Shown here: in pieces, positions 1-35,435 of the stretch
Numbering within the stretch: position 1 is the first letter of the stretch
How the letters are laid out: each line of letters opens with the position of its first letter
Source: Planctomycetota bacterium
GTDB lineage: Bacteria > Planctomycetota > Phycisphaerae > Phycisphaerales > Phycisphaeraceae
Assembly (NCBI GenBank): GCA_029267795.1
Contig: JAJUHR010000001.1
Coordinates: 1-45,515 of the forward strand
Direction: 5' to 3'
Length of the DNA: 45,515 nucleotides
Notes under the pieces: generated by a model
Told to the model about the DNA's origin: nothing
The model's input: the letters and a program-made list of their open reading frames with translations, nothing else
Database searches by the model: none
Translations under genes and position numbers: made by a program

Positions 1-3516
<3,516 letters not shown>

Positions 3517-3520
3517 ACCC

Positions 3521-6349
3521 CTATACCTCCTTCGCCGGGAGGTACACGTAAACGCCCAGCACATCCGGTGGCAACTCGGGTCGAATTTCGTAGCGGACGC
3601 CCTGTATGCGCGCGGCCTCGCGGACGCGGCGGTGAGCGTCCAGAAGTTCCTCCCCGCGGCGGCGGGCGAGCTGCTCCAGTGTCGATTTGATGTGCTTGAA
3701 GTCGTCAAGCACCTTGCGGATGAAGTCGGCGGCCTGGCTTGGGGTGATGTTCTTCTTCGGTTCGGCCGCAAGAAGCCGTTCCGCTTGGTCATTATCCAGC
3801 CATTGCGCCTTGTCCGGCGAACCGGCAAACCCCGCCAGTTGGGAGTCCTCGGCTAGAAGCTCAGCGGTACGGTCGCCGCGACGGGTCAGGATGTGATAAC
3901 GGCAGCGTAGCAGAAGAAGCGTGGTCCAACGGTCCACGGCATCGGTGCGAATCGCGCCGCATCTGCGAGCCACGGTGCCCTCATTATCCAGAGCGGCGTT
4001 CAGGACATACTGAGCCAATCCCTCTACGATGGGATGCGTCCGGCTTAGGTAAAGTACGCCCGGATCCACGGGCAACTCGAACTTCGCCTTGAAGGTCTCC
4101 ACGAAGCCGCAGGCCTCACGGAGCGCGCGGGGGGTTTCGCGGAGGACGAATTCCACGCCGTCCGGCCTGTCCGTTGTGAACGCGCCGTAAGCCTGCAATG
4201 CCTGGCGCACGAAGGTCTCGACATCGGTCCCTGACCCGATAGCGGCGCGGACTGCCTCCATCTCGCGGGATACATCGTTCACGCGGGCTTGAATGCCTTC
4301 TTGGGCGAACATCGTCCGGGAGCATTTTTCCTTCTGGCTCACGTTCTCCCAGTCGGTATGCAGCCGAGCGCGTTCTTCACGAAGGAACTCGTCCATGCCG
4401 GGAAGCAGAGCCTGGGCCGACGCACCCGCGCGTTCCCGGAGCAGCAACCCCTCGAAGATGGCCTCAACGACGGCGTTGGTGTCGGCGGGAACGGGCACCG
4501 AGACGCCTAGCGAGTTGCGGATGGTCTTGTGCTTGCGGAGAAGCACGTCCAAGACAAGCCCGTCAATCTGGTTGTCGATGCCATAGTAGGTCAAAGAGCG
4601 GACGGTCTTGCTGGCCTGCCCGTAGCGGTCTACACGTCCGTCGCGCTGCTCGTGACGTGTGGGATTCCAGGACAGGTCGTAGTGCACGACCGCGTTGAAG
4701 TATTGCTGTAGGTTGATGCCTTCGCTGAGGCAGTCGGTGCAGACCAGCACACGGGGCGAGGACTCGGCCAATTGGCGGACGCGAAGCTCTCGCTCGTCTG
4801 GCGGGAGCAATCCTGTAACTGCTATCACGGCGGTCTTGCTCCCAAGGCGTGAGCGGAGTTCTTGAGCAACGTACTCGGCCGTGGGGATGAAACGGCAGAA
4901 GATAATCGGGTTATAACCGTCATGGATAATGTCCTTGACAAGGGTCACGGCTTTCAGGAGTTTCGCATCGGAGTCGCTGCCCAGCCCCTCTGCTTGGCGG
5001 GCAAAGTCCAACAAGCGACGCCGGACGGCATTGTCAGGAGCCGCCTCCTCGCTGGGATCGCTGCCTGGAACCACGTCGGCGGTTTCGGCCGAGTCGGTGT
5101 CCTCCTGGTCAAGGACCATGCGCCGTCCCACCTCATCGGCCTCCTCCCACGTCTCGGTATCAGCGGAAGCCGAGCGGTTGCGGAGAGTAGCTGCGGCGGC
5201 AGCGGGACTGGAAGCCAAGGAGCGCAAAAGTGCCAGCGCTGACCACCAGCGGACACGAAGGCGATGTTGTCCGCCGGTGCGGTCGGCGACGATCTCCCGC
5301 GCGTAATTCAGCACGCGTTCAAACAGGTTCTTGTATTCCGGGGTGAGCTTGTAGTGTTCCTCGCGGTCTTCGCGGTCAGGGAACACCGTCTCCTTGTCAA
5401 GGAAGTGGCGGATATCTGCCCGGCGACGCTGAACGAAATGCGCGGCAAGCCGGCGACGATGCTTCTCGTTCTCCGGCCCGCCCAGGTCGTCAGGGAGGCT
5501 GGCGAAGTCCGCATTCAGGAAGCACAGGAGGGAGCGGAAGGCCCCTTCCTTCCCGCTGTGCGGCGTGGCCGTAACGAATACCATGTGGCGCGACGCGCTG
5601 GCGGCAAGCGCCTTGACCAATGAATATCGCTGATGTCTGCCGCTCCTGGTGTTCTCCTCCCATGCGGACGAGTGGGCTTCATCGACGATGACCAAGTCAG
5701 GGCAAGTGCGGATGAACTCGTCGCGCCGTCGGTCGGACTTGATGTAGTCGATGGAGACAACAGTGATGGGGTGCACGTCAAAGATGGATTGGTCGCCGCG
5801 ACATTCCCGTTCGAGTCTTCGGACCGTGCCCGGCAAAACCAGTCGAGCGTCGATATTAAACTTCTCGGCCAATTCGCGTTGCCACTGCTCCGCGAGGTGC
5901 GGAGGCGAAAGCACCGCCATTCGCTGGCACTCGCCGCGGTCCATAAGCTCGCGGGCGATCAGCGCGGCCTCGATGGTCTTGCCCACCCCGACGTCGTCGG
6001 CAATGAGCAGTCTGACGGGGTCGAGCTGAAGGGCCATCAACAACGGCACAAGTTGGTAAGGCCGCGGTTCCACCGCGATTCTGCCGAAGGAACGGAATGG
6101 TCCCGCGCTTGAACGGAAGCCCAATCGAAGTGCGTCGCGCAACAGACGGCAGGACCGATAGTCGCCAGATTGCGCCGGATCAGGAAGGGTAAAACTCGCG
6201 GGGTCGACCGACTCTATAGCGGTACATATACCTGCGATTTCATCGTCAGTTCCGCCGAGCGGGCGTAGAACTAGAAGACGCTCCGTAGACTCGGGAAGGA
6301 CAATCCACTCCCGACCGCGGGTTCGCACCAATGAACCGACCGCATGCAT
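3521..6349 (-). CDS. SNF2-family helicase (DISARM DrmD-like)
   Basis: ORF track 3521..6400. Motif I DDVGVGKT, motif II VIVDEAHSS, FVTATPHSGK, motif VI HEQRDGRVDRYGQ. The preferred start is ATG 6349-6347 (MHAVGSLVRTRG), which overlaps the upstream stop as TGATG. Confidence 0.9.
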   Translation of the reverse strand: MHAVGSLVRTRGREWIVLPESTERLLVLRPLGGTDDEIAGICTAIESVDPASFTLPDPAQSGDYRSCRLLRDALRLGFRSSAGPFRSFGRIAVEPRPYQLVPLLMALQLDPVRLLIADDVGVGKTIEAALIARELMDRGECQRMAVLSPPHLAEQWQRELAEKFNIDARLVLPGTVRRLERECRGDQSIFDVHPITVVSIDYIKSDRRRDEFIRTCPDLVIVDEAHSSAWEENTRSGRHQRYSLVKALAASASRHMVFVTATPHSGKEGAFRSLLCFLNADFASLPDDLGGPENEKHRRRLAAHFVQRRRADIRHFLDKETVFPDREDREEHYKLTPEYKNLFERVLNYAREIVADRTGGQHRLRVRWWSALALLRSLASSPAAAAATLRNRSASADTETWEEADEVGRRMVLDQEDTDSAETADVVPGSDPSEEAAPDNAVRRRLLDFARQAEGLGSDSDAKLLKAVTLVKDIIHDGYNPIIFCRFIPTAEYVAQELRSRLGSKTAVIAVTGLLPPDERELRVRQLAESSPRVLVCTDCLSEGINLQQYFNAVVHYDLSWNPTRHEQRDGRVDRYGQASKTVRSLTYYGIDNQIDGLVLDVLLRKHKTIRNSLGVSVPVPADTNAVVEAIFEGLLLRERAGASAQALLPGMDEFLREERARLHTDWENVSQKEKCSRTMFAQEGIQARVNDVSREMEAVRAAIGSGTDVETFVRQALQAYGAFTTDRPDGVEFVLRETPRALREACGFVETFKAKFELPVDPGVLYLSRTHPIVEGLAQYVLNAALDNEGTVARRCGAIRTDAVDRWTTLLLLRCRYHILTRRGDRTAELLAEDSQLAGFAGSPDKAQWLDNDQAERLLAAEPKKNITPSQAADFIRKVLDDFKHIKSTLEQLARRRGEELLDAHRRVREAARIQGVRYEIRPELPPDVLGVYVYLPAKEV

Positions 6350-9300
6350 CAGGCTTTCCCTCCGAAGATATCCGGGTGCCTGGCGATGATGCTTTGCCAA
6401 TCATCGTCATGGGAGAAGCGCACCACCGTCCACCCCTGCTCGGTCAACAACGCTTCTTGCTGACGGTCACGCTGCGCTCGCTCGGGAAACTGGTGGTGAG
6501 GACCATCCACGTAGACGGCGCAGTACAGGTCGCCATAAGAAAAATCAGGCCGGGAGTTGCATTCCTCGATTCGCTTCTGTGCGTGCGTTGGCAGGCGGTA
6601 ATTATGTTCGTCCATAAATCGAAGCCAGCGACGTTCCAATTCCGTATCGCATCTGCGCAGAAGCTGCTCAACATGAGCCACGCGCGTTCCTGAACCACCG
6701 GAAATCCGCACTGTCCCGTTCGCAAGATTCCGAAGGATGTCCGCAATAACCTTTCGGTCCAGAAATTCGTGGTCGGGCTGATTGGTATAACTCATGAGGC
6801 AGTCGTAGCAGGCCGCTTCACAATCTTCCTTGGCGGCAGGTCCACGCTGCAAGTCCTGGCCGGTCGCCGGATCGAAATGGCAAGCGGATAAGGCCGTCTC
6901 GGCGACATGTTTCATGGTGGTCGCGTCTTCCACAAAGCGACGCAAGACGCCCGCGCCGCCCTCGGCCGATTCGTAGAAGAGAAGGGAACGCCGCTCCTCA
7001 AAATTCGGCAGAGGTTCAGCGGCCAACTCATCGTCCTCCAGCTCGAACCAGTTCTGAATGGCGCTCTTGAGGGCCGCTTGGAGAGATGCCATAAGCCCGA
7101 CGCTCGCGGCATCCCGGAGTTCGAAAATAAGACAGTTACGGCGGTCCTCGACGTAAGGAATCACACGCACCCGACGTGGGCTCATCGGGTCATCGTCCTC
7201 GGCCGTTTCATCGTCGCTGCGAGCCCAATAGCCGCGCTCCACGTCGAGGACAAACCCAGTTTGCTCTTGGTGCTTGCGCCGCCGCCAGCCGAGGTTGATC
7301 CGCCACAATGTGGCTGCGTGCCCATAGTACATCGTTGCAACCGGATTTCCGTCTAACTCCACTGTGGCCGTTCTGAAGGATGCTGCTCCCTCTCGCTCGG
7401 CGAACCGTATCGTGGTTCTCAGGTCGTATCCTTGACGCAAGCGTTCTTCTTCATCGCAGTTGATCCGGTCGCGCCGTTTCGTGACGACACTCTGGAGCCG
7501 GAAGAGTTGGCGAAGCGGCGGCCCCAGCCGGGTCCGGCAACGTTCACAGGTGTCGGGACCATTGCCATCCGTCGACATGTGCATGTAACCGCATTGTGGA
7601 CAGATCAGGGCGACGCGCGTGCGAAGGTCGCCTTCCTCTTCCTGGACCGGCAGAATGACTTGGTTGATGATGTAGCGTGAGCCCTCATGGTAAATAATAG
7701 CTCGAGGTCCGAACTCGGAAATCGCCAGGAAACGGGGGCGGGAGACGAAGTCGTCTCGATTGGCCCGAAGACGACGTCCAGGAATATAAGCCGACAGCGG
7801 CAGCCGCGGAAAGCTGTACCCAGGCAGAAATCCTTCGCTGGCGAAGTAGCGATAGCTATAGAAGTCCGACTGGATGATATTCTCCGCGTCCGTCAAGAGC
7901 CGCAGTTGCGCTTCTGCGTCTCTCCGCAGGCGATGAGCTTCCTGTTTATCCTGCGGACTGCGTGATGCGTCCAAGATGATCTGATTCTGCCTTTGCGCCT
8001 GACTGAACGCCGACCGATACAAGCCCCTCCACCGCTCGCAAGCACGGTCAAACTCCCTGCCGACATGGGCAAAGACGGCATCCAACCATGCGCCGTTGAA
8101 ACACACGGCGGCCTCAGCATCGTTACGGATAGTCTGAAGAACACGGTCTGCTCTTTGACGGGCGCGCATCTTGGCGGTGTCATCGCCAATCGCCGCTTTG
8201 ACATGCGACTGAAGCGCCAACGATGGCGGGTCCCCCGCGAGGTCCAAGATGTCCTTCAGCGAGGTGCCAAGTGAAAGTCCGGTTTCCGCCAACCAGAGCG
8301 CCTGAACATGCGACCGCACCAAATCCTCGTTTGCCAGGTCGATCTGCGGAGGAGAAACGATTCCGCCGACCATTTTTTCCTGCCGTCGGTAGAAATATTG
8401 GTCGTGGGGACTGCCAGAGGCACAGTAGGTGAAAACGATCGCGGGTTGTCCGCTCCGACCCGCTCGGCCACTCCGCTGGGCATAGTTTGCCGGAGTGGGA
8501 GGTACGTTGCGCATGTTTACGGTGTTAAGCTGGGCTATGTCGATACCCAGTTCCATCGTCGGCGAACAGTAAAGGATTGGCAGACGCCCCGCGCGAAAGG
8601 CATTCTCCCGCGCCTGACGATCCTCATAGGAAACTTGTGCTGTATGTTCCCGCGCTTCAATCCCACGGGTCTGTGCCGCCATCGTCCGGTAGTATTCTTG
8701 GAAGAATGCGTTGGGCTGTCTGCCTTCTGATGGCATCGTGGGCTGGCGAATAGGATCGTAGTAAGCCCTGGTCCCATCTCCGGCCTTCCATGTCATGGAG
8801 TCAGCCAAGAGCTGATATCCTGGCATTTCACCGGTATCATGTGGTTCGCGGACAACAGTAATGAGGCCGCCAATCTGAAGCGCGTTAAGCAAGCCTTCGA
8901 TGATGTGTGATGTGTCATCCAGAGACAAACGGCCAGCACCGAGCGTTTGCGGCCGACGCAGATATTGCCCGAATCCGCTTCTTGGTGACAGGTAAAGGTC
9001 GCCGCCGTAATCCTGGTTCCTGCGATAGGCTCTGGGATACAGGACAGCCGCATGCTCAAGATCACGAACTTGCTCGTTCTCATCAAATCCCCAAGGCGGA
9101 AGCAATTTCTGGCTACTCTGCAGTAACAGTCGTTCTTGGAATGCCTGATCGAGGTATTCCACCTTGATGGCGAGACTGCGTCGCATCAGGTCCAGAAGTA
9201 CCCGACAGATATCGACGCGCTGATTCACGGAGGCGTGTGCCAACGCTGGGTGCGAAGTTTTCCAAATGTCGTCGGCTTGACAGACTTCACGCAGATAGGG

Positions 9301-11520
9301 GTACTCAATGACCAATAGACCGACCTGCTCAAGGTTCGGAGCCGTGATGCGCCAGCCACACAAGAGGTCTCGGTACAGGCGATAACCCAGTACGCTCCGC
9401 AAGACCCTGTTGGTGTCTTCTCTCGCCTGGAACCGAGCACTGGGATCGCTCGCATAATCCTCAAACGCGAGCCCGAGCGATTCAAATACCCGTATGGCAA
9501 GCTCATCGTGCCGAAGCCCGGAAGCCTCCACCTTCACGGCGGCGCGGTAAAGCGCCGCGCGCAGACGTCCAACTTCCACGAAATCATTAAGATGGCCTGC
9601 CTGCAAGGATGCATCCTGCCGATTGTCCGTAAAGCTGAGGAGTTTTCTGGCTTCATCGGATAATGGCATTTCCCGCAGATGGATGATTGCGGAAAGACTG
9701 AGAATGGTTGTTGCCGTGCTACGACCACCTGCACCCAGCGAACTCAGTTTTTGGAAGTCCGATCCTTGCCGAAAACCGTAAGATACCCCACATCGCAAGC
9801 AGAAACGGAAAGGCGCGGGGACATACCAGGCTGTCAGGCCGTCTGCGGCGACGCGCCCATCAGATGAAACGCGTAGCTCCTGCGGCAGTTCCTTGCGCCG
9901 TCGGGTTGGCAGTTTTCCATCGGCATCAAGCCAGTCATCAGGCAGTCTGGACCGGAACTCGTCGCCTTCTTGAGGCCAAGGATAATCAGTGCTGGCATAG
10001 AGGAACCCGGGCACACTGTCGGGCTCATGATGGGTATCCGAGAGTTCTCGGGGAAGAAGGTGTTCACCCCCAGACGGTTCACGGGGTTCTCTCCGAACGC
10101 AATAGTATTCCTGGCCGCACTCACGGCAGAAAACAAGCGGCAGGAGAATCCGGCTTCTATCGCCCGGGACGAACTGCTGACCGTGAAGCGTGATGTACCG
10201 GTCGGCTTCTGGTTGCAGAGACGCATACGCGGTATCGCCACGACTAATGAATTGGTGAACCCGGAAGGCAAACACCGGAAAGCCAGTTTCTGGATGGGGG
10301 CAAGCGTGACCCACCAGAAGCATCTGCTGAATCGCGCGGGCGCATTCCGCAACAGAGCAGCCGGTAAGGTGATGGAGATCTGTCGCCGCACCATTCTCTC
10401 CGGTGATGCTGCGGGGAATCTGGCGAACCAGACGGCCTGTTTCATATTCACGACGGATACCGAATGTGGTTTCGATCCAAGAAGCAAGTGGGTCGGAGAC
10501 CAGGTCCTCAAAGGATACAGATGGCTTCACAGAACCAGCGGCCACCCGTGCGGCAAGGCGACGCCGGTGTTCCGGGTCGGCAATATCTTCTTCCGGCGTC
10601 ACACGTCGGAGCGTTTCTCCGATAATCTCCTGAGGTCGGACTTCCGCACCGAAAAATCGGGTTGCAACGCGCGCCACTTCCTTCTGTTGGGCTACCCACG
10701 AGTCGCCGCTGGCCAGAGTAGCTGATGTTCCAACGCATTGCAGCCAGTCCGCCGAAAAGACATCTCTGGCGCGCCGGATGAGCATGGCAACATCGGCGCC
10801 CTGGCGTCCGCGATAGGTGTGCAGTTCATCGAGGACCAAGAACCGCAAGCCGGAAGCGGCCCGTACCAATGGGCGCTCTATCGGCCGGGTAAGCAACAGC
10901 TCAAGCATCACGTAGTTGGTGAGCAGGATGTCTGGTGGGTTGGCTACGATCTCATCCTGTTGGTCCTTCGACTCCTGACCAGTGTAGCGACGGAAAGTTA
11001 CGGGGCTCTTGCCTTCTGGGAAACCGAATTTGAGAAACTTCTCCAGTTCATTGACCTGGCTGTTTGCCAGGGCGTTCATCGGATACACAATCACGGCTTG
11101 TATGCCGTGTCCACTCCCATTCTGCAAGACGTGGTCAACGATGGGAACTATGTAGGCCAAACTCTTGCCTGATCCTGTGCCCGTCGTTAAAACATAGTTG
11201 CGTCCTGAGGCAGCCACTCTGATGGCATCAGCTTGGTGCCTGTGCAGTCTGAGCGTCCGGCCAGTATCTGACGATCCAGATTTCAGGCGAAACACGCGAC
11301 GGCATCCGTCGTGAAGTATCTTGGCGTCGACGAGGTCATCGACGGTCTCGCCGGGCTCAAAGCACGGGTTGAGCTGAATCAAAGGATCAGGCCAGAGAAG
11401 CCCGGCAGCTATCTGCTGATTGACCTCCTGGCGAACACGCTCGTCGCGGATATTGATGAAGCTGTTAACGAACGAGGCGTAATCCTCAATGAGCTTTTCG
11501 CGGAGTTCAAAGACGTTCAC
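6349..11520 (-). CDS. 1723-aa DEAD/DEAH-box helicase fused to a DUF1998 (MrfA-type Zn-binding) domain and a C-terminal Vsr/DUF559-like restriction-endonuclease-fold domain (DruE-like, or a fused DrmA/DrmB-like protein)
   Basis: GTG start at 11520 overlaps the upstream stop as GTGA. Motif I TTGTGSGKSL, motif II VLDELHTYRG, GTSATL, motif VI QRSGRAGRSGQ. Internal CxxC pairs CRECGQEY and CLRCGVSY. DUF1998-type cysteines CPQCGYMHMS...CERCRT (about 7530-7614) and CEAACYDCLMSYTNQPDH (about 6781-6830). C-terminal RPDFSYGDLYCAVYVDGPHHQF...RDRQQEALLTEQGWTVVRFSHDD (about 6352-6680). Confidence 0.88.
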   Translation of the reverse strand: MNVFELREKLIEDYASFVNSFINIRDERVRQEVNQQIAAGLLWPDPLIQLNPCFEPGETVDDLVDAKILHDGCRRVFRLKSGSSDTGRTLRLHRHQADAIRVAASGRNYVLTTGTGSGKSLAYIVPIVDHVLQNGSGHGIQAVIVYPMNALANSQVNELEKFLKFGFPEGKSPVTFRRYTGQESKDQQDEIVANPPDILLTNYVMLELLLTRPIERPLVRAASGLRFLVLDELHTYRGRQGADVAMLIRRARDVFSADWLQCVGTSATLASGDSWVAQQKEVARVATRFFGAEVRPQEIIGETLRRVTPEEDIADPEHRRRLAARVAAGSVKPSVSFEDLVSDPLASWIETTFGIRREYETGRLVRQIPRSITGENGAATDLHHLTGCSVAECARAIQQMLLVGHACPHPETGFPVFAFRVHQFISRGDTAYASLQPEADRYITLHGQQFVPGDRSRILLPLVFCRECGQEYYCVRREPREPSGGEHLLPRELSDTHHEPDSVPGFLYASTDYPWPQEGDEFRSRLPDDWLDADGKLPTRRRKELPQELRVSSDGRVAADGLTAWYVPAPFRFCLRCGVSYGFRQGSDFQKLSSLGAGGRSTATTILSLSAIIHLREMPLSDEARKLLSFTDNRQDASLQAGHLNDFVEVGRLRAALYRAAVKVEASGLRHDELAIRVFESLGLAFEDYASDPSARFQAREDTNRVLRSVLGYRLYRDLLCGWRITAPNLEQVGLLVIEYPYLREVCQADDIWKTSHPALAHASVNQRVDICRVLLDLMRRSLAIKVEYLDQAFQERLLLQSSQKLLPPWGFDENEQVRDLEHAAVLYPRAYRRNQDYGGDLYLSPRSGFGQYLRRPQTLGAGRLSLDDTSHIIEGLLNALQIGGLITVVREPHDTGEMPGYQLLADSMTWKAGDGTRAYYDPIRQPTMPSEGRQPNAFFQEYYRTMAAQTRGIEAREHTAQVSYEDRQARENAFRAGRLPILYCSPTMELGIDIAQLNTVNMRNVPPTPANYAQRSGRAGRSGQPAIVFTYCASGSPHDQYFYRRQEKMVGGIVSPPQIDLANEDLVRSHVQALWLAETGLSLGTSLKDILDLAGDPPSLALQSHVKAAIGDDTAKMRARQRADRVLQTIRNDAEAAVCFNGAWLDAVFAHVGREFDRACERWRGLYRSAFSQAQRQNQIILDASRSPQDKQEAHRLRRDAEAQLRLLTDAENIIQSDFYSYRYFASEGFLPGYSFPRLPLSAYIPGRRLRANRDDFVSRPRFLAISEFGPRAIIYHEGSRYIINQVILPVQEEEGDLRTRVALICPQCGYMHMSTDGNGPDTCERCRTRLGPPLRQLFRLQSVVTKRRDRINCDEEERLRQGYDLRTTIRFAEREGAASFRTATVELDGNPVATMYYGHAATLWRINLGWRRRKHQEQTGFVLDVERGYWARSDDETAEDDDPMSPRRVRVIPYVEDRRNCLIFELRDAASVGLMASLQAALKSAIQNWFELEDDELAAEPLPNFEERRSLLFYESAEGGAGVLRRFVEDATTMKHVAETALSACHFDPATGQDLQRGPAAKEDCEAACYDCLMSYTNQPDHEFLDRKVIADILRNLANGTVRISGGSGTRVAHVEQLLRRCDTELERRWLRFMDEHNYRLPTHAQKRIEECNSRPDFSYGDLYCAVYVDGPHHQFPERAQRDRQQEALLTEQGWTVVRFSHDDDWQSIIARHPDIFGGKA

Positions 11521-12899
11521 CGCATCACCTCCCAGTGCCCGCCCTTGGCCGGGCCAACGCGGCGAAGACGGCTAGCGGCCTTCAGAGCGGCAATCTGTTT
11601 CTCGACGGCTCGCGGGGTCAAGCCCAGGGCATCGGCAATTTCCCGAGCGCTTGCCGTGTCTCGTTTCCGCAGGATCACCAGGATTTTCTCCGAACTTTTC
11701 TCCGAACCATCTCCGAACTTTTCTCCGAACCTCTTCTCCGAATCGGGTTCTCCCTCCTTCAGGGCGAACTCAGGCGACCGGTGGAATATCGCCCGGAAAA
11801 ATCCGTCCGGCTCGAAGGTCGGCTCGCGGAGTCCCGCCGCAACCATGATCTCCTTCATTTTGCGGATTCCCATACCGATGCGCTCGACCTTGTGCATACG
11901 GAAGAAGAGGTCAGCGATGAGCTCGTTCCTTCGGATCGAGACCGTACCGAGTTCCCGAACCGATAGGCCCTTCGGCAGACCGCCGGGGTTCACGATCTCC
12001 ACGCGGTCGTCATAGACCTCCACGCTTACCTGCGTACCCGTGATGCTGTAGTCCCGGTGCATGAGCGCGTTTACCACAGCTTCGCGCAGAACCTCGAGGG
12101 GAATCTCGTAGATGTCCTCACGGTTTACACCTCGGATTTCACTGCGGACGTTCAAATGCCTCTTGAGGAAGGCGACGGCTTCGTTGAACTGGGTGAGCAG
12201 GTCGTCGCGCACGTCGCGCCGGTCGTAGATGTGCAGACGGTCCGTTCCCTTGAACGCCAGAAGCGTCATTTGCGCCTGATGAAGGTGCTCATGGACGTCC
12301 TTGGCGAAGAAGAGGATGCCAGAGTTCTTGACCCGCGTCTCGTCCGCCACCTTGAGGCTGCGTAGGAAATCGGGCACGGCGGTTCGGCCGATGCGGATGC
12401 CCGCCTCCTTGATGAAGGCGCGTACCTTGGTCTTGGAGACGTCGTCGAAGGCGAAGCCTTTGACCGTTTTTTCCTCGAACGGGAGCAGCTCGTTCTCTGC
12501 GAACATGATGCGCAGCTCGTCATGGCTCATCTTCTGTGTGTTACCGTCGAGCCGCCGGTAGTAGCCGGAGCCGCAGGAGTACGGCTTCTCCGTGCCTTCC
12601 GGCACGACAACGGCCACGACCTCGCCGACCTGCGCAAGCTCGACGGAGATGGTCGGCTTGCAGTTTCGCGCCAGGCTGTTGATTTTGGCCTTCAGGTCGT
12701 TGCTCAGGCGCTCGCCGACGATGGTCCCGCCATCCCGTACGCCGAGGAGGAGCGTCCCGCCCTTGGCGTTGGCGAAGGCCACAATGTCCTCATCGATGCG
12801 CGGGGTGTACCGCTCCTTGAACTCCACGGTGAGGCCTTCGCCCTCGCGGATAAGGAGCTTCACTTGGTCGGCGGTGATGGTGCAATCCGTGCGCTTCAC
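11517..12899 (-). CDS. Schlafen/AlbA_2 DNA-binding domain, HATPase_c_4 and C-terminal wHTH protein (the family often mis-annotated as RecG-like); putative regulator or sensor
   Basis: LIREGEGLTVEFKE and IVAFANAKGGTLLLGV (AlbA_2). REAVVNALMHRDY (HATPase_c_4). C-terminal ILVILRKRDTASAREIADALGLTPRAVEKQIAALK (wHTH). The preferred start is GTG 12899, which overlaps the HTH gene stop as GTGA. The ORF track extends the ORF to 12968. Confidence 0.8.
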   Translation of the reverse strand: MKRTDCTITADQVKLLIREGEGLTVEFKERYTPRIDEDIVAFANAKGGTLLLGVRDGGTIVGERLSNDLKAKINSLARNCKPTISVELAQVGEVVAVVVPEGTEKPYSCGSGYYRRLDGNTQKMSHDELRIMFAENELLPFEEKTVKGFAFDDVSKTKVRAFIKEAGIRIGRTAVPDFLRSLKVADETRVKNSGILFFAKDVHEHLHQAQMTLLAFKGTDRLHIYDRRDVRDDLLTQFNEAVAFLKRHLNVRSEIRGVNREDIYEIPLEVLREAVVNALMHRDYSITGTQVSVEVYDDRVEIVNPGGLPKGLSVRELGTVSIRRNELIADLFFRMHKVERIGMGIRKMKEIMVAAGLREPTFEPDGFFRAIFHRSPEFALKEGEPDSEKRFGEKFGDGSEKSSEKILVILRKRDTASAREIADALGLTPRAVEKQIAALKAASRLRRVGPAKGGHWEVMR

Positions 12900-13123
12900 T
12901 GCCGCGCCTCCCGCTTGGCCTTTTGTTCCTCTTTCTCCCTGATTCGGTCTAGCCGCGAGGCCAGCCAACAGTCGATGACGTCGCGGTGGAAGCGCCAGTG
13001 CTTACCCACCTTCTGGCCGGGCAAGCTGCCTTCTTGAGCCAACTTATACAAGGTGCTCTTGGAGACCTTGAGATATCCTGCAAGCTCCTCGATGGTCATT
13101 ACATCGCCGGAGTCCAATGCCAT
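12896..13123 (-). CDS. Small excisionase-family (MerR-like) helix-turn-helix DNA-binding protein
   Basis: MTIEELAGYLKVSKSTLYKLAQEGSLPGQKVGKHWRFHRDVIDCWL. The preferred start is ATG 13123 (MALDSG), preceded by GAGGAG. The ORF track starts at 13168. Confidence 0.8.
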   Translation of the reverse strand: MALDSGDVMTIEELAGYLKVSKSTLYKLAQEGSLPGQKVGKHWRFHRDVIDCWLASRLDRIREKEEQKAKREARQ

Positions 13124-13174
13124 TTCATGCTCCTCGTCTCCACGCGAGCCAGTATTGGTCTCAAACAAACTTCG

Positions 13175-13727: not shown

Positions 13728-15782
13728 CTACCGAACGTTTGGAGAGACGCCTGCCTTTCGCCAAATGTCTTCATTGGCGCAGAAATATTCTTGCCCATCG
13801 GCTCCGTTTCGCCGCAAGTGGACATTTCCTTGGCCTAGAAGGTGCTCCAATAGAGGCATCTTCAGGGCATCCTCGGGCGTCGCATCGGCGGGCTCCTTGA
13901 CCTCTCTTATTAGGTGATAGAGTTGCTTGCTCTTCACCCCCAACTCACGGTTGTTCCCGGGGTCCCCGGACGGGTTCCGAATGAACTTCGTCCTGGAGTC
14001 ATTGAGCTTCGAGACTAGGGCTAGGCCGAGTCGGTTGACTGCTGTCTGCGCAAACTGCATAATCGCATCGGCCAGTCCCGCTGCTCCTTCGATCGCCTCA
14101 TGCTTGTCGGTCTTGACATGCTGCCCGTAGCTTTCCTCGAAGTTGCGGATGCGAACGGGCAGCACAAACGGCTGCTCGGGCGCGCTCCACATGTAACAGT
14201 TACCTCGGATAGGCTCTCCGATCAGATGAGCCAGCACGTCGTCGGAGAAATGGGCGTTGTGGCGGTTGAGTACGCTGGCATCGGACTCGGACAGAAGATG
14301 GAAGGTAAACCAGTTGTCGGCTTGGCTCAGAAGTTCCCCTGCCAATGCTCCAGGTTGTTGGGTGATGAGAATGGCACCAAGTTCGTACTTGCGTCCCTCC
14401 TTCACCCACTCAACGAATGGACTCGATTCCTCCATCCTCTTACCAAGAACACTCTGCGCCTCCTCGATGACGGCGATCGTCGGGATGATCTGGTGCCCTC
14501 CGGTGAAGTTCTCCTGGTTGTGTGAGAAGATATGCCGAAGAAGAAGCCCTGCCACCATTTCGCCAGCAGCGCCACTCAGGAGGCTGATGTCAATCACGAC
14601 GATGCCGCCGCGGCGGAGTCCTTCGACGGTTCCTGACAAGACGCGGCTGTTTGGATCGTGGAGCAAACCGACGACGGCGTTCATGTTGCTGCGAGCTGCG
14701 GCAATCTCTGCAGCTGCCTGTTGAATCTGGTTCTGCTGATAGCCTAGCAGCCGACCGATGTCGGCATCGGCAGCTTGTAGTTTATCTTTGTAGACGAGGT
14801 CAACCATCGCTCGCCAGTCATTGGCGTGCAGCGACTTCAGCTTGATTACGTTCTGGTGTTCCTGCCGATCCGGCGATATACCAATTCCAATTACGTCCCG
14901 CGGCGGGAGATCCCGAATGTCAAGCTTCACATCGCCGACCTTCCATTTGCCGTAGTACGGCGACGGGACTGGGCGTTTTGTGAACACAGCAATTCGGTCG
15001 TGAAGATGTGGGACATCGCATAGACCGGGACGGGCCGGCTTCTTGGCTGTGTCAGGCCAGAAGTATTCCCCATCAGCATCGAAAATGAGTGTACCAACGG
15101 GTAGCCCACCATCGGTGCGGGGATCGGTCCGGTACAACTCGGCAAGCAAATATTTCATCAGATTGGATTTGCCATAACCCGCACGCGCAAACACGACGGA
15201 ACGACGGGAGACCAAGTTGTGGATGTTAAAGAGAACCGGCAACTCCGGGTCCATGGGACGTAGCACCGGGTCTTTGTGGGTGGTTCTGTTCCCGCTGTAG
15301 ACGAACTCGCCGAGCACGTAGTCTCCCAACACCGTCTCGCCGCCGCTTAACTTACAGAGTGTCCCGAGAACCGCCGCGCTTGGCAGCGCCACCCTTGCCC
15401 CCAGGTGAGGCAGGCGGCGTTGTGATGGCACGTACAGCACCTTCTCGTCCACGACTCGGACAGCGCCGAGCAGCTTGATCTGGACACGGTACTTCAGCCG
15501 CTGCTGCTTCAAGTCTTCTGGGACCGCCTGTTGGCGGCGCTGCATCGTGTTGATGTAGTCCTCGCCTTCCGCGCTTGCGAGCAGGCCAGTAGGCACGAAT
15601 CGGGTGATCCGGCCCAGAGCGGCCTCTTCCAACGAACCAAGTTCGACCAAGAGAAACTGCCCCAATTGCGGCCGTTCCATCATGCCAACGTTGTAAGGGG
15701 CGACAATCTCGGCTGCGAATTCCAGGCCCTTCTCATTGAAGCCCTTGAACGTGCCGAAGACCTCAGATTCTGCGAAGAGCAT
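13728..15782 (-). CDS. HerA-like (DUF87/FtsK-HerA superfamily) ATPase/translocase
   Basis: Walker A FARAGYGKSNLMKY, FDADGEYFW, Walker B-like GGIVVIDISLL, AVIEEAQSVL, EGRKYELGAILITQQPGAL. Confidence 0.85.
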   Translation of the reverse strand: MLFAESEVFGTFKGFNEKGLEFAAEIVAPYNVGMMERPQLGQFLLVELGSLEEAALGRITRFVPTGLLASAEGEDYINTMQRRQQAVPEDLKQQRLKYRVQIKLLGAVRVVDEKVLYVPSQRRLPHLGARVALPSAAVLGTLCKLSGGETVLGDYVLGEFVYSGNRTTHKDPVLRPMDPELPVLFNIHNLVSRRSVVFARAGYGKSNLMKYLLAELYRTDPRTDGGLPVGTLIFDADGEYFWPDTAKKPARPGLCDVPHLHDRIAVFTKRPVPSPYYGKWKVGDVKLDIRDLPPRDVIGIGISPDRQEHQNVIKLKSLHANDWRAMVDLVYKDKLQAADADIGRLLGYQQNQIQQAAAEIAAARSNMNAVVGLLHDPNSRVLSGTVEGLRRGGIVVIDISLLSGAAGEMVAGLLLRHIFSHNQENFTGGHQIIPTIAVIEEAQSVLGKRMEESSPFVEWVKEGRKYELGAILITQQPGALAGELLSQADNWFTFHLLSESDASVLNRHNAHFSDDVLAHLIGEPIRGNCYMWSAPEQPFVLPVRIRNFEESYGQHVKTDKHEAIEGAAGLADAIMQFAQTAVNRLGLALVSKLNDSRTKFIRNPSGDPGNNRELGVKSKQLYHLIREVKEPADATPEDALKMPLLEHLLGQGNVHLRRNGADGQEYFCANEDIWRKAGVSPNVR

Positions 15783-15785
15783 ACG

Positions 15786-16949
15786 TCATGCCTCCTTGTA
15801 GCGGATGGCCGCGAGTGATCTGCCCAGATGCTTGAGCCGAAGCAGCCGCTCCGCTTCGTCGGACTTCAAGCCATCGCATATCCCCCGGACGAGGAGGTCT
15901 TGCAAAACTTCGACTTCAAGTCCACTGAGCTTGGCGTAGTCATGTGCCCGCTGGATGCACATTGGATAGTCGGGAATTGGAAAGCCCTGTTGTGCGTCAA
16001 CGGTTAACTGACCAAGGATTCGTTCCGTCTGGTTTGTTTGCCATGCGGCGATGTCCACCGGCCAGACAGGATCGAAGGGGTGGTCGCCGAACTTGACGAG
16101 GTACATCCTGCCCATCGCTTGGTACAGACGTTGACCATCATCTTCAGGCTCCGTTGTTTCGTACGTGTTGAACCAGGTAAGATCGAAGTTGTAACAATCC
16201 TTCTCGATATCATCAGGCACCTTGACGTAACAAGGAAATGGCTTGTGGAAGGTCGCCTCAAGCTCCAGGGCAACCGCCAGCCGACCAAGGACGGCGCTGT
16301 GCTTCGCAACGCCTACGAGGGAGAGGATGACGTTCCGCTTTGCGTGCGATGCAACGCCTTCTCGAAGCTTTTGGTCGATCTGGGGAAATACCTCTCGCTT
16401 AAACGACTTCGTGCGAAGCAGCCCGTCCCGCACCAAGATCGTATCACCACCCCACTGGATTCCCGGATTCGTCGCGAGGTCGTAGAGGACAGCCCATTCG
16501 ATGATGTCGCGGTAGGACCGCATGGCGCCTGTGCTCTTGCCAGACTGGCCAAGTCCTTTCAGCAGGTACGACAAGCCCTCCAAGTCCCTGCCAAGGTCGG
16601 CACATAGCCGCTGCAAGGGTGCCACTGCGTTTGGACTGCCGGCCGTGACGCGATCTTTCAGCTGGTCGATGCTGGCCGTCCCCGGCACCGCGTCCAACAC
16701 GCATTGATTGCCTCTGGAGTCCACAACACGGACCAGTTCGACAAGAGCTGGGTTGAAGACAAGGCGGTTGTCGCCACCATCAGCAGACACGAAGGACACC
16801 GCATTGACGGCATAGGTCCTGAGCGGCTTGATGTCATTACGAAGGCGACGCGCATACTCCCGGAACTTGACCAAGATGGGGTCGTCTGCACGATAGGCGG
16901 CGAGGATTTTTTCTCTCAGTGCCGCGAGGTCGAGATTCGCCAGGGCCAT
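15786..16949 (-). CDS. NurA-like 5'-3' nuclease
   Basis: VSFVSADGGDN (N-terminal catalytic Asp region), ILVRDGLL, LVGVAKHS, IPDYPMCIQRAHDYAKLS. This pattern is typical of the NurA domain. There is a 3-nt gap to the HerA-like gene. Confidence 0.7.
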   Translation of the reverse strand: MALANLDLAALREKILAAYRADDPILVKFREYARRLRNDIKPLRTYAVNAVSFVSADGGDNRLVFNPALVELVRVVDSRGNQCVLDAVPGTASIDQLKDRVTAGSPNAVAPLQRLCADLGRDLEGLSYLLKGLGQSGKSTGAMRSYRDIIEWAVLYDLATNPGIQWGGDTILVRDGLLRTKSFKREVFPQIDQKLREGVASHAKRNVILSLVGVAKHSAVLGRLAVALELEATFHKPFPCYVKVPDDIEKDCYNFDLTWFNTYETTEPEDDGQRLYQAMGRMYLVKFGDHPFDPVWPVDIAAWQTNQTERILGQLTVDAQQGFPIPDYPMCIQRAHDYAKLSGLEVEVLQDLLVRGICDGLKSDEAERLLRLKHLGRSLAAIRYKEA

Positions 16950-16961
16950 GGTTGTCTCCCA

Positions 16962-18176
16962 TTAGCCGCCTGGAGCGGCTCGCCGAAGCGCGGGTACCGT
17001 GCGCGGTTCCGCAAGCAGATGGAGTAGAGCATCCCTTTGCCATGCACGGAACTCGGGCCTGCGGTCCGCCCGCGGAACAAGCCAACGCTCCCTTGCCCAC
17101 TCAGAAACTTTGGCGACGGTTGGCAAGTCGGAGTAGTCAGGTTTGATGGTGAGTCCCTGCAACACCTCCCTTGCGTTTGCCGCCAGGATACAGGCGAATA
17201 CCTCTCGCGCGATTCCGTGTCTGAGAAGGTCCGGGTTCATGCCAATCTGAGAGAGCACCTTGCGGACAGCCCTAAGCCTCCAGTTCGGTCCATCGCCGTA
17301 CTGGTGATTGTTTGCGTAAGCCTCTTCGGCTGTTACCAGGTACTCACGCATGGAAGCAAACAGGCTGTCGGGGATATGAAAGTGCCCCCAGCCTGATGTG
17401 TAGCCCAGCGACTCGAAGAACCGCCGGCCGTTGAGAATCAGCCGGTTATAGACGGCAGAACGGCCGAGGGCAGACGTGGTGGTCACGAGGCATAGGGATG
17501 GCCGCTTCCGCTTCTTGGAGATCAGGCCCCTCGACTTGGCGAACTTGGCGGCAAAGGCATCCCGCACCTCGCTAGTGCCCGCGAGGCAGGCGACCAGTTT
17601 GCCACCCAAGAGCATGTTGTAAGGCGGCACGGCCCCAAGAACATAGGCGTCGAGCACGTTCACAAGCCGCTGCCGGCGCTGTTCAACGGTCCAGCCGATC
17701 CAATCATCCCGGACCTTGAGATTGAACACCGGGTCGCCGAGTGCCATCAGGCCGATCAACTTCCCGTTGGAGTCGTCCCAAACGAGGTACCGCATCCGCC
17801 GGCCGTAGCCTTGAGATACCGGCACGCTCCATGTGAGGCTGGCTAGGCGAAAGAGGTCAGACTGCCAAGTATCTGATGCTACAAGCTCCAGACGTGCGTC
17901 CACCCGGTCTGTGTTAACCTCGCTCCCGTCTGCAAAGTACCGCCGGAGCTTCGGCCAAGAGTTCGCGACCAGCGTGCGCAACCCTGTCAGTTTCTCAGCC
18001 CGCTGAGCTTGGTGCATCCTTCGGAAGCACTCTTTGGTCAGTTCGGGTGGCTGAAGGTGGCCGGAACCTTTGCGCGTGAATCCGAGTTTGCGAAGGTGCT
18101 CGCGAAGCTGCCGCTTGATTCGGGCCTCTCGTGTGAACAACGGGATGTTGGTAGGTTTCTTGCCACGTCTCGGCAC
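16962..18176 (-). CDS. DUF4338-like protein (Druantia DruA-like)
   Basis: GYGRRMRYLVWDDSNGKLIGLMALGDPVFNLKVRDDWIGWTVEQRRQRLVNVLDAYVLGAVPPYNMLLGGKL matches my recollection of the DUF4338 core (G..lRYLV ... RD.wIGW ... R..L). GTG start at 18176. There is a 12-nt gap to the NurA-like gene. Confidence 0.55.
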   Translation of the reverse strand: MPRRGKKPTNIPLFTREARIKRQLREHLRKLGFTRKGSGHLQPPELTKECFRRMHQAQRAEKLTGLRTLVANSWPKLRRYFADGSEVNTDRVDARLELVASDTWQSDLFRLASLTWSVPVSQGYGRRMRYLVWDDSNGKLIGLMALGDPVFNLKVRDDWIGWTVEQRRQRLVNVLDAYVLGAVPPYNMLLGGKLVACLAGTSEVRDAFAAKFAKSRGLISKKRKRPSLCLVTTTSALGRSAVYNRLILNGRRFFESLGYTSGWGHFHIPDSLFASMREYLVTAEEAYANNHQYGDGPNWRLRAVRKVLSQIGMNPDLLRHGIAREVFACILAANAREVLQGLTIKPDYSDLPTVAKVSEWARERWLVPRADRRPEFRAWQRDALLHLLAEPRTVPALRRAAPGG

Positions 18177-33686: not shown

Positions 33687-34042
33687 CTCCGCTAAAAGCG
33701 ATCAGGAAAAAGGTGCTCGAACTGAATTGCGGCAATAGAGAGGTAGTACGCATTGGATCAGTCAAAAGCCCTATGGATGTTCCTGCCGTATTGTGGCCGT
33801 ACAGGTTTGGTCGGATGCCCACCCCCGAGGAGCGGGCGAAATGCGGACCCGATTCGCCCTATGGCGAAATCCTCCGACCGCTCAAAGCTATAGGGGAATA
33901 CTGCCTCGATTGCAGCGGAGGATCGCGCAAAGCGGTCAAAGAATGTCCGTGCGTCAAGTGCCCACTTCATTCATATCGAGAAGGGAAGAACTTGGCCATG
34001 CGGCGGGCAGGTGCTCGCCCGCCTAGAGGCCGTCGTTTCTAA
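33683..34042 (+). CDS. Small Cys-rich (Zn-ribbon-like) phage/element protein
   Basis: ATG 33683 overlaps the upstream stop as ATGA. CLDCSGGSRKAVKECPCVKCPLHSYREGKN. Confidence 0.6.
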   Translation: MTPLKAIRKKVLELNCGNREVVRIGSVKSPMDVPAVLWPYRFGRMPTPEERAKCGPDSPYGEILRPLKAIGEYCLDCSGGSRKAVKECPCVKCPLHSYREGKNLAMRRAGARPPRGRRF

Positions 34043-34130
34043 AAAGGCCGGGGGCAAACAGCCCTTTCCTCATATCAGCAAACCCGGCGGTGGAGGGTCC
34101 ATCGCCCCAAATAAGGTACGGGAGAAAAAT

Positions 34131-35435
34131 ATGCTTTTGCCAAGCAAGCAGGTGGTTGCACGCACGCTCGGGCACATCGACAACAACCAATACCTGGAAG
34201 CTGCCCAGGACTACGCCATGCGGTTCGGTTGGACCATCATCCCCATCGGCGCGGGCGGCAAAACGCCGCCTCGAGGTGTGAAGTGGGAGCGGTATCAAGA
34301 AGGAGCACGTCCTTCTGATGAGGAATTTCGACGGTGGTTTTCAAGGGGCGATGTGGCTGGTCTAGCCGTTATCCATCGAGATGGTCTCTGTGTCCGCGAT
34401 TTCGACGACTCCCAGGCGTATGACCATTGGCAAGCGCATTACCCCGAGCTCGCCAAGTCACTTCCGGCGGTGAAAACGGCGAGGGGTTACCACGTCTATT
34501 TTCGGTGCCCGTCGGCCATGTACAAGAAGTTTGGTGATGGTGAGTTGAGAGTCGGAAGCGGCCACTACACCATCGTGCCCCCCTCGGCTCACGCCTCTGG
34601 GGCGATCTACCAATGGATGATCGAGCCCAACGGAGACATCCCAATCATCGATGATCCAAAGACCGCTGGACTCGTTCCTGCGAGTGATGAGCATAACCGG
34701 GAGTTACTTAGCAAAGATCGACTCCCTGTAACCCCCCTAAATCCCCCTCTATTGAGTGAGTCTGATGTGTCTGATGAGTCTGATATGTCTGATATGTCTG
34801 ATGTGTTTGATGTGTCAAAGTTGGGGCTAGACGAAGCGAGTTGGGCTGCGATAAAGAGCACACTGCCTACAGCAGCGGGCCAGCGAAACCGTCGCATCTT
34901 CAACCTTGTGATGGTGCTGCGAAGGCAAGGATTCCAGAGCGTTCAGCAGTGCAAGCCCATTGTTCAGTTTTGGCATCAACGGGCATTGCCTGCGATCCGA
35001 ACGAAAAATTTTCTGGAGACTTGGACAGACTTCCTGAACGCGTGGGAAAACTACGATCCGGAGAAGGAAGGCCGCCTGGGCAGGGCCATCGCGAAGGCAA
35101 CCGCGCTGACGCCCCCAGCGTCAATCGCGGAGTTCCAAGACGAGCTCTTAAACGTGGTCTGTTGTACGTGCCACGTGCTGGCCATTGAGGGGAAGGGCAG
35201 ATTTTGGTTGAGTGGCCGCGCGCTAGCACTTCCATTGGGCGTTGATCACCGTCGAGTATACGATTGTGTCGACGTTCTCATCTTCGAAGGGATCATCAAG
35301 GTTGTGCAGGAACACTCGCCTAAAAGGGCGCGGGAATTTGAATGGCTGCTCCCGTTGGGTGATGAGCAGCTTCTACAACCCAGTCTTTCCGAAATCTCCG
35401 CGGGCAATGTGGGTATGGAGGACGTTTCCAAGTAG
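34131..35435 (+). CDS. Bifunctional DNA primase/polymerase (PrimPol N-terminal domain) replication protein
   Basis: ATG 34131 follows GGGAGAAAA. FGWTIIPIGAGGKTPPRGVKWERYQ, GLAVIHRDGLCVRDFD, TARGYHVYFRCP, GSGHYTIVPPSAHASGAIYQW. The ORF track starts at GTG 34011. Confidence 0.8.
   Translation: MLLPSKQVVARTLGHIDNNQYLEAAQDYAMRFGWTIIPIGAGGKTPPRGVKWERYQEGARPSDEEFRRWFSRGDVAGLAVIHRDGLCVRDFDDSQAYDHWQAHYPELAKSLPAVKTARGYHVYFRCPSAMYKKFGDGELRVGSGHYTIVPPSAHASGAIYQWMIEPNGDIPIIDDPKTAGLVPASDEHNRELLSKDRLPVTPLNPPLLSESDVSDESDMSDMSDVFDVSKLGLDEASWAAIKSTLPTAAGQRNRRIFNLVMVLRRQGFQSVQQCKPIVQFWHQRALPAIRTKNFLETWTDFLNAWENYDPEKEGRLGRAIAKATALTPPASIAEFQDELLNVVCCTCHVLAIEGKGRFWLSGRALALPLGVDHRRVYDCVDVLIFEGIIKVVQEHSPKRAREFEWLLPLGDEQLLQPSLSEISAGNVGMEDVSK

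Follow-up and report, generated by a model that had tools for sequence, protein, structure and literature searches.

Which defence system, if any, is encoded by a 1723-codon open reading frame (ORF) that reads like a helicase at its beginning and like an endonuclease at its end? The question is raised by a 45,515-nucleotide stretch of DNA from a Planctomycetota bacterium (GenBank assembly GCA_029267795.1, contig JAJUHR010000001.1, positions 1 to 45,515; the whole stretch is called the window below), for which an initial annotation, made from the letters alone, had proposed a helicase-DUF1998 giant protein with a C-terminal Vsr/DUF559-type endonuclease domain. We consider it very probable that the locus is an ARMADA type I system of the order armC-armA-armB and that the ORF is armC, whose product ArmC is a YprA-family superfamily 2 (SF2) helicase ending in a DUF559/Vsr-type domain. 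In all likelihood its core consists of RecA1, RecA2 and an OB-CON-DUF1998 canopy, to which the peripheral domains specific to this clade (BrxA-like, two-CxxC zinc and MarR-like/Cap) are added. This architecture is already known, since it was published as ARMADA type I in September 2025 (Bell et al. 2025, PMC12458937). No new kind of system is therefore claimed; the published architecture was re-derived correctly from raw sequence, and the remaining value of the locus is as a thoroughly documented case of type I in a Planctomycetota-like genome.

We class the protein as an ARMADA type I ArmC because of its conserved gene order, its homologues in a published catalogue and the JGI annotations of its family. 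Type I is described by Bell et al. as the gene order YprA-like, BrxHII-like, PglX-like. In the window armC (11520-6349), armA (6349-3521) and armB (3516-<1) follow one another on the minus strand, the product of armA matching the DpdE (858 bits) and DrmD (270 bits) models of PADLOC and that of armB the DrmMI model (242 bits). Among loci with enough downstream DNA, an SNF2 gene lies downstream of armC in 51 of 52, and a methylase is the third gene in 43 of 45. By gene calls, the armC-SNF2-methylase order recurs in Fontivita pretiosa, the closest named relative (76 % identity), and in four other independent contexts; no UvrD-like gene appears among the gene calls of these five. A GajB-like/RelE helicase (ArmD) after ArmC marks type II, and here armA stands directly after armC with no ArmD between them. 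Three homologues that are 58-60 % identical over 100 % of ArmC, namely HXG08670.1 (P0079), MBW2072408.1 (P0050) and MBW2032151.1 (P0104), are entered in Table S1 of Bell et al. under the label "ARMADA Type I helicase", and many family members bear the JGI annotation "YprA (DUF1998 family)/very-short-patch-repair endonuclease". The type I helicase is said in the same paper to have BrxA-like, ZBM and MarR-like inserts and a C-terminal Vsr domain predicted to be active, its Table S2 giving the domains as BrxA-like, zinc beta-barrel, MarR-like and "active? Vsr". PADLOC itself matches ArmC to DruE models in part only, with the neighbours matching DrmD/DpdE and DrmMI; assignment to the DruE family was dropped, the matches being partial and PADLOC-DB 2.0.0 (2023) holding no ARMADA models.

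Relatives of this operon vary in content and length. In one of them (L002, 15306-17086) AbiEi_4 and Fic genes lie between armC and the SNF2 gene, and HamA of Hachiman stands after the methylase; the armC-armA junction seems, from this locus, to tolerate cargo. The methylase ranges from 1132 to 1667 residues among close relatives (L001, L005, L007 and L003, set beside window 1-3516), and because the tblastn matches of armB split around residue 490, swappable middle or C-terminal regions, perhaps for specificity, are suggested.

The armC reading frame is open over all 1723 codons in the window translation, from a GTG that shares bases with the upstream gene's stop (GTGA) to a TGA that shares bases with the armA ATG (TGATG). 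The homology search yielded more than 7600 homologues, and the GTG start is supported because more than 100 homologues align with ArmC beginning at residue 1. Pfam matches to DEAD, Helicase_C, MZB and DUF559 bear out the overall description first given to the protein, with helicase and DUF1998/MZB in a single polypeptide, and the family profile matches the MrfA/YprA structure 6znp (E 3.5e-30). Motifs I (TGTGSGKS, residues 112-120), II (DELH, 231-234) and III (SAT, 266-268) fall in the DEAD match (94-270, E 3.9e-27), and motif VI (QRSGRAGRSGQ, 1015-1025) lies within or at the edge of the Helicase_C match (948-1024), much as first read, in the first 280 or so residues and near residue 1000 respectively. 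The two CxxC pairs that had been noticed between them are C465/C468 and C574/C577, 100 % conserved in a sample of 120 homologues, in which a Cys4 cluster (C1307/1310/1325/1328) is conserved to 99-100 % and the DUF1998 cysteines C1567/1571/1574 are invariant.

The C-terminal domain is a real DUF559/Vsr-type fold and no chance resemblance. A nuclease-like stretch had been marked at 6352-6680, and the string on which that reading was based (PDFSY..AVYVDG..H..RD..GW.VVRF, ArmC residues 1658-1702) does sit inside it, at 6415-6549. The Pfam DUF559 model (PF04480, cutoff 20.6 bits) matches whole ArmC barely over its cutoff, at 21.3 bits, and the isolated last 139 residues at 26.1 bits (E 8e-6); it matches all 22 orthologue tails tested (best E 9.7e-9), 19 of which are matched also by REase_MTES_1575. 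An AlphaFold2 (AF2) model of residues 1585-1723 has a mean predicted local distance difference test score (pLDDT) of 88 and an alpha-beta-beta-beta-alpha-beta core of PD-(D/E)xK-like type. A Foldseek search of BFVD with this model gave 14 matches at E <= 1e-3, with DUF559 proteins leading, the best being a phage DUF559 protein (E 1.2e-5, TM-score 0.52, root-mean-square deviation 2.8 A over 92 columns) and further ones being named very-short-patch-repair endonuclease, restriction endonuclease or homing endonuclease. Searched against the PDB, a sequence profile of the domain finds four sequences at E <= 10, all of the Vsr fold (3hrl and three Vsr entries). ArmC residues D1659, D1672, H1676 and D1685 are paired with D, D, H and D in 3hrl, and the Asp of the ArmC PDF motif aligns with that of RPDF in Vsr.

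Conservation points the same way. In a sample of 80 loci, taken from one-genome-per-species contigs, 44-60 % identical and drawn from more than ten phyla, the domain is carried by all 71 that reach the ArmC C-terminus. The candidate catalytic residues are retained there at D1659 (70 of 71), D1672 (68 of 71, and one Glu), H1676 (64 of 71) and D1685 (68 of 71), and all four are invariant across 22 aligned sequences. The initial annotation had named two outcomes that would count against its proposal, a C-terminus without a predicted PD-(D/E)xK-like fold and catalytic residues not conserved in orthologues; since the fold is predicted, with DUF559, Vsr and restriction endonuclease models as its BFVD matches, and the candidates are conserved, neither was found. 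The DUF559/Vsr domain of ArmC is thus predicted, from sequence and from structure modelling, to be an active nuclease.

The region between the helicase motifs had been described as an insert of about 650 residues separating the RecA lobes. The extra mass is real, and two parts of that description are to be amended: it partly splits RecA2, and it is shared across the clade. The strand KLLSFTDNRQDA (residues 626-637), nearly invariant among homologues and aligned to LLTFTDSRQ of DruE 9tu7, lies inside the supposed insert and presumably corresponds to SF2 motif IV. Because of this motif-IV-like strand, and because the Helicase_C match in ArmC begins only after model position 33, some of the extra mass appears to be inserted within RecA2, and the segment around KLLSFTDNRQDA is probably the first part of that lobe. 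An AF2 model of residues 285-950 (666 residues) is mediocre (pLDDT 71.7, predicted TM-score 0.49); its secondary structure agrees with the layout in Table 1, and its confidence drops exactly at the orphaned RecA2 segment, which was modelled there without the rest of RecA2. As to names, the helical domain is "BrxA-like" in Bell et al. and a five-helix domain in the DruE cryo-EM preprint; the zinc module, with two or more conserved CxxC motifs where RecA2 begins, as goes with ARMADA type I, agrees with the "ZBM beta barrel" of Bell et al.; the second inserted region is "MarR-like" in that paper and "Cap" in the DruE structure, a domain for which the preprint authors know of no homologous structure; and the name OB-CON is likewise taken from Bell et al. 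Foldseek with the 666-residue model matched nothing in the PDB, not even the DruE entries 9tu7 and 9wae that match by sequence, and because it gave nothing the BrxA-like and MarR-like labels stay claims of the literature. An alignment with DruE, which had been proposed at the outset, pairs the RecA lobes and short motifs of the ArmC family profile with two solved DruE sequences (positions in Table 1), and the PADLOC DruE models have the same RecA1-RecA2 spacing as ArmC. Since the solved DruE sequences share that spacing, the large RecA insert is a trait of the whole ARMADA/Druantia clade and not peculiar to this ArmC.

Table 1. Features of the window, with positions counted from its first letter; residue numbers are those of ArmC
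Feature	Position	Strand	Basis
armB, PglX/DrmMI-like N6-adenine methyltransferase, leaves the window	1..3516	-	Pfam Eco57I, N6_Mtase; PADLOC
armA, SNF2/BrxHII/DrmD-like helicase, 942 residues from ATG 6349	3521..6349	-	Pfam SNF2-rel_dom, Helicase_C; PADLOC
armC, YprA-family helicase-nuclease (nuclease predicted), 1723 residues, very probably ARMADA type I	6349..11520	-	ORF; Pfam; homologues; Bell et al. 2025 Table S1
ArmC: DUF559/Vsr-type PD-(D/E)xK endonuclease domain (predicted), residues 1619-1706	6403..6666	-	Pfam; AF2; Foldseek; conservation
ArmC: DUF1998/MrfA zinc-binding domain (MZB), residues 1480-1575	6796..7083	-	Pfam MZB E 6.7e-10; invariant C1567/1571/1574
ArmC: post-RecA2 helical and OB-CON region with extra Cys4 cluster, ~residues 1085-1479	7084..8268	-	conserved cysteines
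ArmC: RecA2 C-terminal part, motifs V-VI, residues 948-1080	8281..8679	-	Pfam Helicase_C 948-1024; DruE 9tu7 1076-1197, 9wae 1215-1318
ArmC: second inserted region, ~residues 655-940	8701..9558	-	AF2, mostly helical, with a helix and three-strand unit at 867-913
ArmC: probable N-terminal RecA2 segment with strand KLLSFTDNRQDA, ~residues 595-650	9571..9738	-	conserved block; DruE alignment
ArmC: beta-rich zinc-binding module, ~residues 415-590	9751..10278	-	AF2 strands; both CxxC pairs
ArmC: helical domain, ~residues 300-410, boundaries approximate	10291..10623	-	AF2 helices 316-406; literature
ArmC: RecA1 lobe, motifs I-III, residues 94-270	10711..11241	-	Pfam DEAD; alignment to DruE 9tu7 98-327
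AlbA_2/Schlafen, HATPase_c_4 and HTH gene, stop overlapping the armC start (GTGA)	11517..12968	-	Pfam
Small HTH_17 (MerR/AlpA-type) gene, 90 residues, heading the gene string before the AlbA_2 gene	12896-13168	-	Pfam
Cassette of DruA (PF14236, E 4.9e-89), a 387-residue protein and a HerA-type DUF87 ATPase	13728-18176	-	Pfam
Prim-Pol gene	34011-35435	+	
Phage-type integrase gene	36241-37797	+	

How such a protein might act can be sketched from its relatives. The PglX-like methylase ArmB would mark host DNA, and ArmA, the SNF2 protein, would act together with ArmC on invader DNA that lacks the marks. ArmC would load onto single-stranded or junction DNA and translocate with ATP, and its metal-dependent C-terminal nuclease, with D1659, D1672, H1676 and D1685 as the putative active site, would then cut. 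The fused nuclease would in this way fill the role of the separate PLD protein DrmC of DISARM and of the fused PLD domain of Druantia III DruE. That a fused domain may replace DrmC had been suggested for this locus at the outset, together with the absence of DrmC itself; Bell et al. state the same view for ARMADA, in which a fused Vsr-type domain replaces the separate PLD nuclease of DISARM, and no PLD- or DrmC-like match was found in the 14 window ORFs scanned, a set that leaves out the RHS gene and small ORFs. ARMADA type II protects Escherichia coli non-abortively, and its defence depends on the ArmA and ArmC Walker motifs as well as on the ArmB NPPW motif (Bell et al. 2025; mBio 2026 EDL933 paper). 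The DruE of Druantia III has been shown by experiment to be a helicase-coupled nuclease, activated at junctions between duplex and single-stranded DNA (2026 preprint). We infer the substrate of the ArmC nuclease, the direction of translocation and the methylation-based self-recognition of type I.

Several points weigh against the placement as ARMADA type I, or against the active nuclease that it would bring with it. A Foldseek search of the PDB with the C-terminal model returned nothing significant (best E 0.65), the weak matches including the VRR-NUC domain of FAN1 and PspGI, and the sequence profile reaches the DUF559 protein 3hrl at E 0.052 and no better. The folds of the sub-domains within the insert, the BrxA-like one included, were likewise not confirmed by Foldseek against the PDB. 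The placement itself draws on cross-reference to the published catalogue, on gene order and on architecture. In Table S2 of Bell et al. the type I Vsr is listed as "active?", the question mark included; the experiments in that paper, as far as available to us, and in the mBio 2026 EDL933 paper cover type II only, and no mutants of the ArmC nuclease site are reported in either. Because no such mutants are reported and only type II was tested, the nuclease step is one that we infer.

That question mark lends some substance to another view of the tail, namely that it lacks catalysis and serves as a DNA-binding or sensing module, comparable to the inactivated Vsr of DruE in Druantia types I and II, and that ARMADA type I stops phage through translocation or remodelling, or through recruiting another nuclease. 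Inactivated Vsr domains in related helicases are indeed described by Bell et al., and the nuclease activity of the tail is, as said, a prediction. Against this stands the retention of D1659, D1672, H1676 and D1685 in 64 to 70 of 71 loci, though the orthologues are only 44-60 % identical, as well as their alignment to D, D, H and D in 3hrl and that of the PDF Asp with the RPDF Asp of Vsr. Such retention is what is expected of an active site, and we regard a non-catalytic tail as unlikely. The four conserved residues are clear targets for mutagenesis.

Some homologues extend beyond the usual limits of ArmC at either end. About 110 extra residues follow the DUF559 domain in 10 of 120 close homologues (1833-1849 residues long, with sequence such as ...DLFPQDWRQLL...GRVVGQYVAEV...; P0046, P0068, P0089, P0092, P0098, P0099, P0107, P0114, P0115 and P0120), and we found no description of a type I tail of this kind in the available portions of Bell et al. 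Two others, P0123 (2078 residues) and P0085 (2040 residues), carry an N-terminal extension of some 300-350 residues before the usual start, which in P0123 has a precomputed match to PF08852.

The immediate surroundings of armC in the window invite a second question, of where the system ends. The AlbA_2/Schlafen-type gene, whose stop overlaps the armC start and which is thereby coupled to armC in translation, was considered as a conserved ARMADA component and rejected: in 52 other loci no homologue precedes armC, and just two (L052 and L085) have weak matches, placed downstream of either the SNF2 gene or the methylase. The gene is a local accessory outside the conserved system. A doubtful alternative is that ARMADA type I has here gained a fourth, translationally coupled gene, the AlbA_2/Schlafen-like product being devoted to ArmC, as its nucleic-acid sensor or its regulator; since the gene is absent upstream in the 52 other loci, it would on that reading be a rare lineage-specific extension and not a chance adjacency, and the cassette carrying it would define a new ARMADA subtype. 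Small HTH_17 genes related to the one at the head of this gene string stand directly upstream of armC, on the same strand, in L033 and L084, and others, with 62 % identity, occur in L007 and L008 on the strand opposite to armC. Farther along the window, the Prim-Pol and phage-type integrase genes adjoin a P-type cation ATPase gene; from the first two, the defence island may lie on an integrative mobile element.

A different possibility is raised by the DruA gene, which lies 5.4 kb upstream, namely that the protein is a Druantia DruE (type III-B-like, with a Vsr tail) working with this DruA. The best PADLOC models for ArmC are DruE3 (331 bits) and DruE1 (291 bits), the DruA at 16962-18176 is bona fide, and a Vsr domain occurs in some Druantia III-like helicases according to Bell et al. 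The DruE matches are nevertheless partial and come from a PADLOC release (2.0.0) older than ARMADA, and the close homologues of the protein are catalogued as ARMADA type I. A Druantia operon joins DruE with DruH, or takes the form DruABCD or DruMFG, whereas there is no DruH at this locus and DruA sits in a cassette with a HerA-type ATPase and a 387-residue protein that has no Pfam match. Because 88 other armC loci are without homologues of any of these three genes, the DruA/HerA cassette is read as a separate unit that shares the island, while the SNF2 and methylase genes follow armC almost always; a Druantia type I-like system built on the nearby DruA was rejected on the same count. Nor does the C-terminus conform, Druantia having a PLD domain in type III-A or an inactivated Vsr in types I and II, and the present protein a DUF559-type domain with its catalytic candidates kept. 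We therefore hold a Druantia origin of the helicase to be very improbable. Hardly credible at all is a DISARM class 1 variant with fused DrmA and DrmB and a lost DrmC, for, DrmD-like and DrmMI-like neighbours and the DUF1998 of the helicase notwithstanding, the DrmA model matches weakly and in RecA2 only (PADLOC, 49 bits), DISARM class 1 has separate DrmA and DrmB and a PLD DrmC where helicase and DUF1998 here share one ORF, such helicases form a clade with Druantia apart from DISARM and Dpd, defined by BrxA-like and ZBM insertions that DISARM is without (Bell et al. 2025), and it is precisely this arrangement that has been published under the name ARMADA.

Read as ArmC of ARMADA type I, the protein can be set beside the systems it resembles. 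The stand-alone repair enzyme Vsr (1vsr, 1cw0) and the DUF559 protein 3hrl show weak similarity to its last domain (E 0.052 to 1), which is fused to a 1600-residue helicase and is DUF559-like, with the Asp of "VDG" where Vsr has "THG"; the zinc site belongs to Vsr. DISARM class 1 shares SNF2 (DrmD-like) and N6-adenine methylase (DrmMI-like) partners and a DUF1998-bearing YprA-type helicase, but keeps DrmA, DrmB and the PLD nuclease DrmC as separate proteins, whereas here one fused protein holds all, its nuclease being of the Vsr/DUF559 type. The DruE of Druantia III (9tu7 and 9wae series; 2026 preprints) is closer in plan, with a YprA core, a distance of 750-900 residues between the RecA1 and RecA2 motifs, a five-helix domain, a large zinc module and a Cap domain at the periphery, and a helicase-coupled C-terminal nuclease, and it acts on junctions of single- and double-stranded DNA; it differs in having a nuclease of the PLD type and, as partner, the exonuclease DruH, with no methylase present, and its significant alignment with ArmC is limited to the RecA lobes and short motifs. 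ARMADA type II (E. coli NCTC 12900, ATCC 8739 and EDL933; WP_000937974.1) likewise has a YprA-like helicase with a Vsr-type nuclease and BrxHII-like and PglX-like partners. Its order is armA-armB-armC-armD, with ArmD a GajB-like/RelE helicase, and its ArmC often has extra inactive EEP and Vsr domains, in contrast to the order and the single Vsr domain seen here. With ARMADA type I ArmC (WP_108720193.1) the likeness extends to size class (about 1720 residues), to the order armC, SNF2, methylase, and to the succession of modules, in which RecA1 and the helical domain are followed by the zinc module with its two CxxC pairs, a RecA2 split by a large insert, a single additional Cys4 within the OB region, DUF1998 and, at the C-terminus, one Vsr/DUF559 domain; there is no difference in the protein itself, and what sets the present locus apart is its local AlbA_2 gene and its DruA/HerA cassette.

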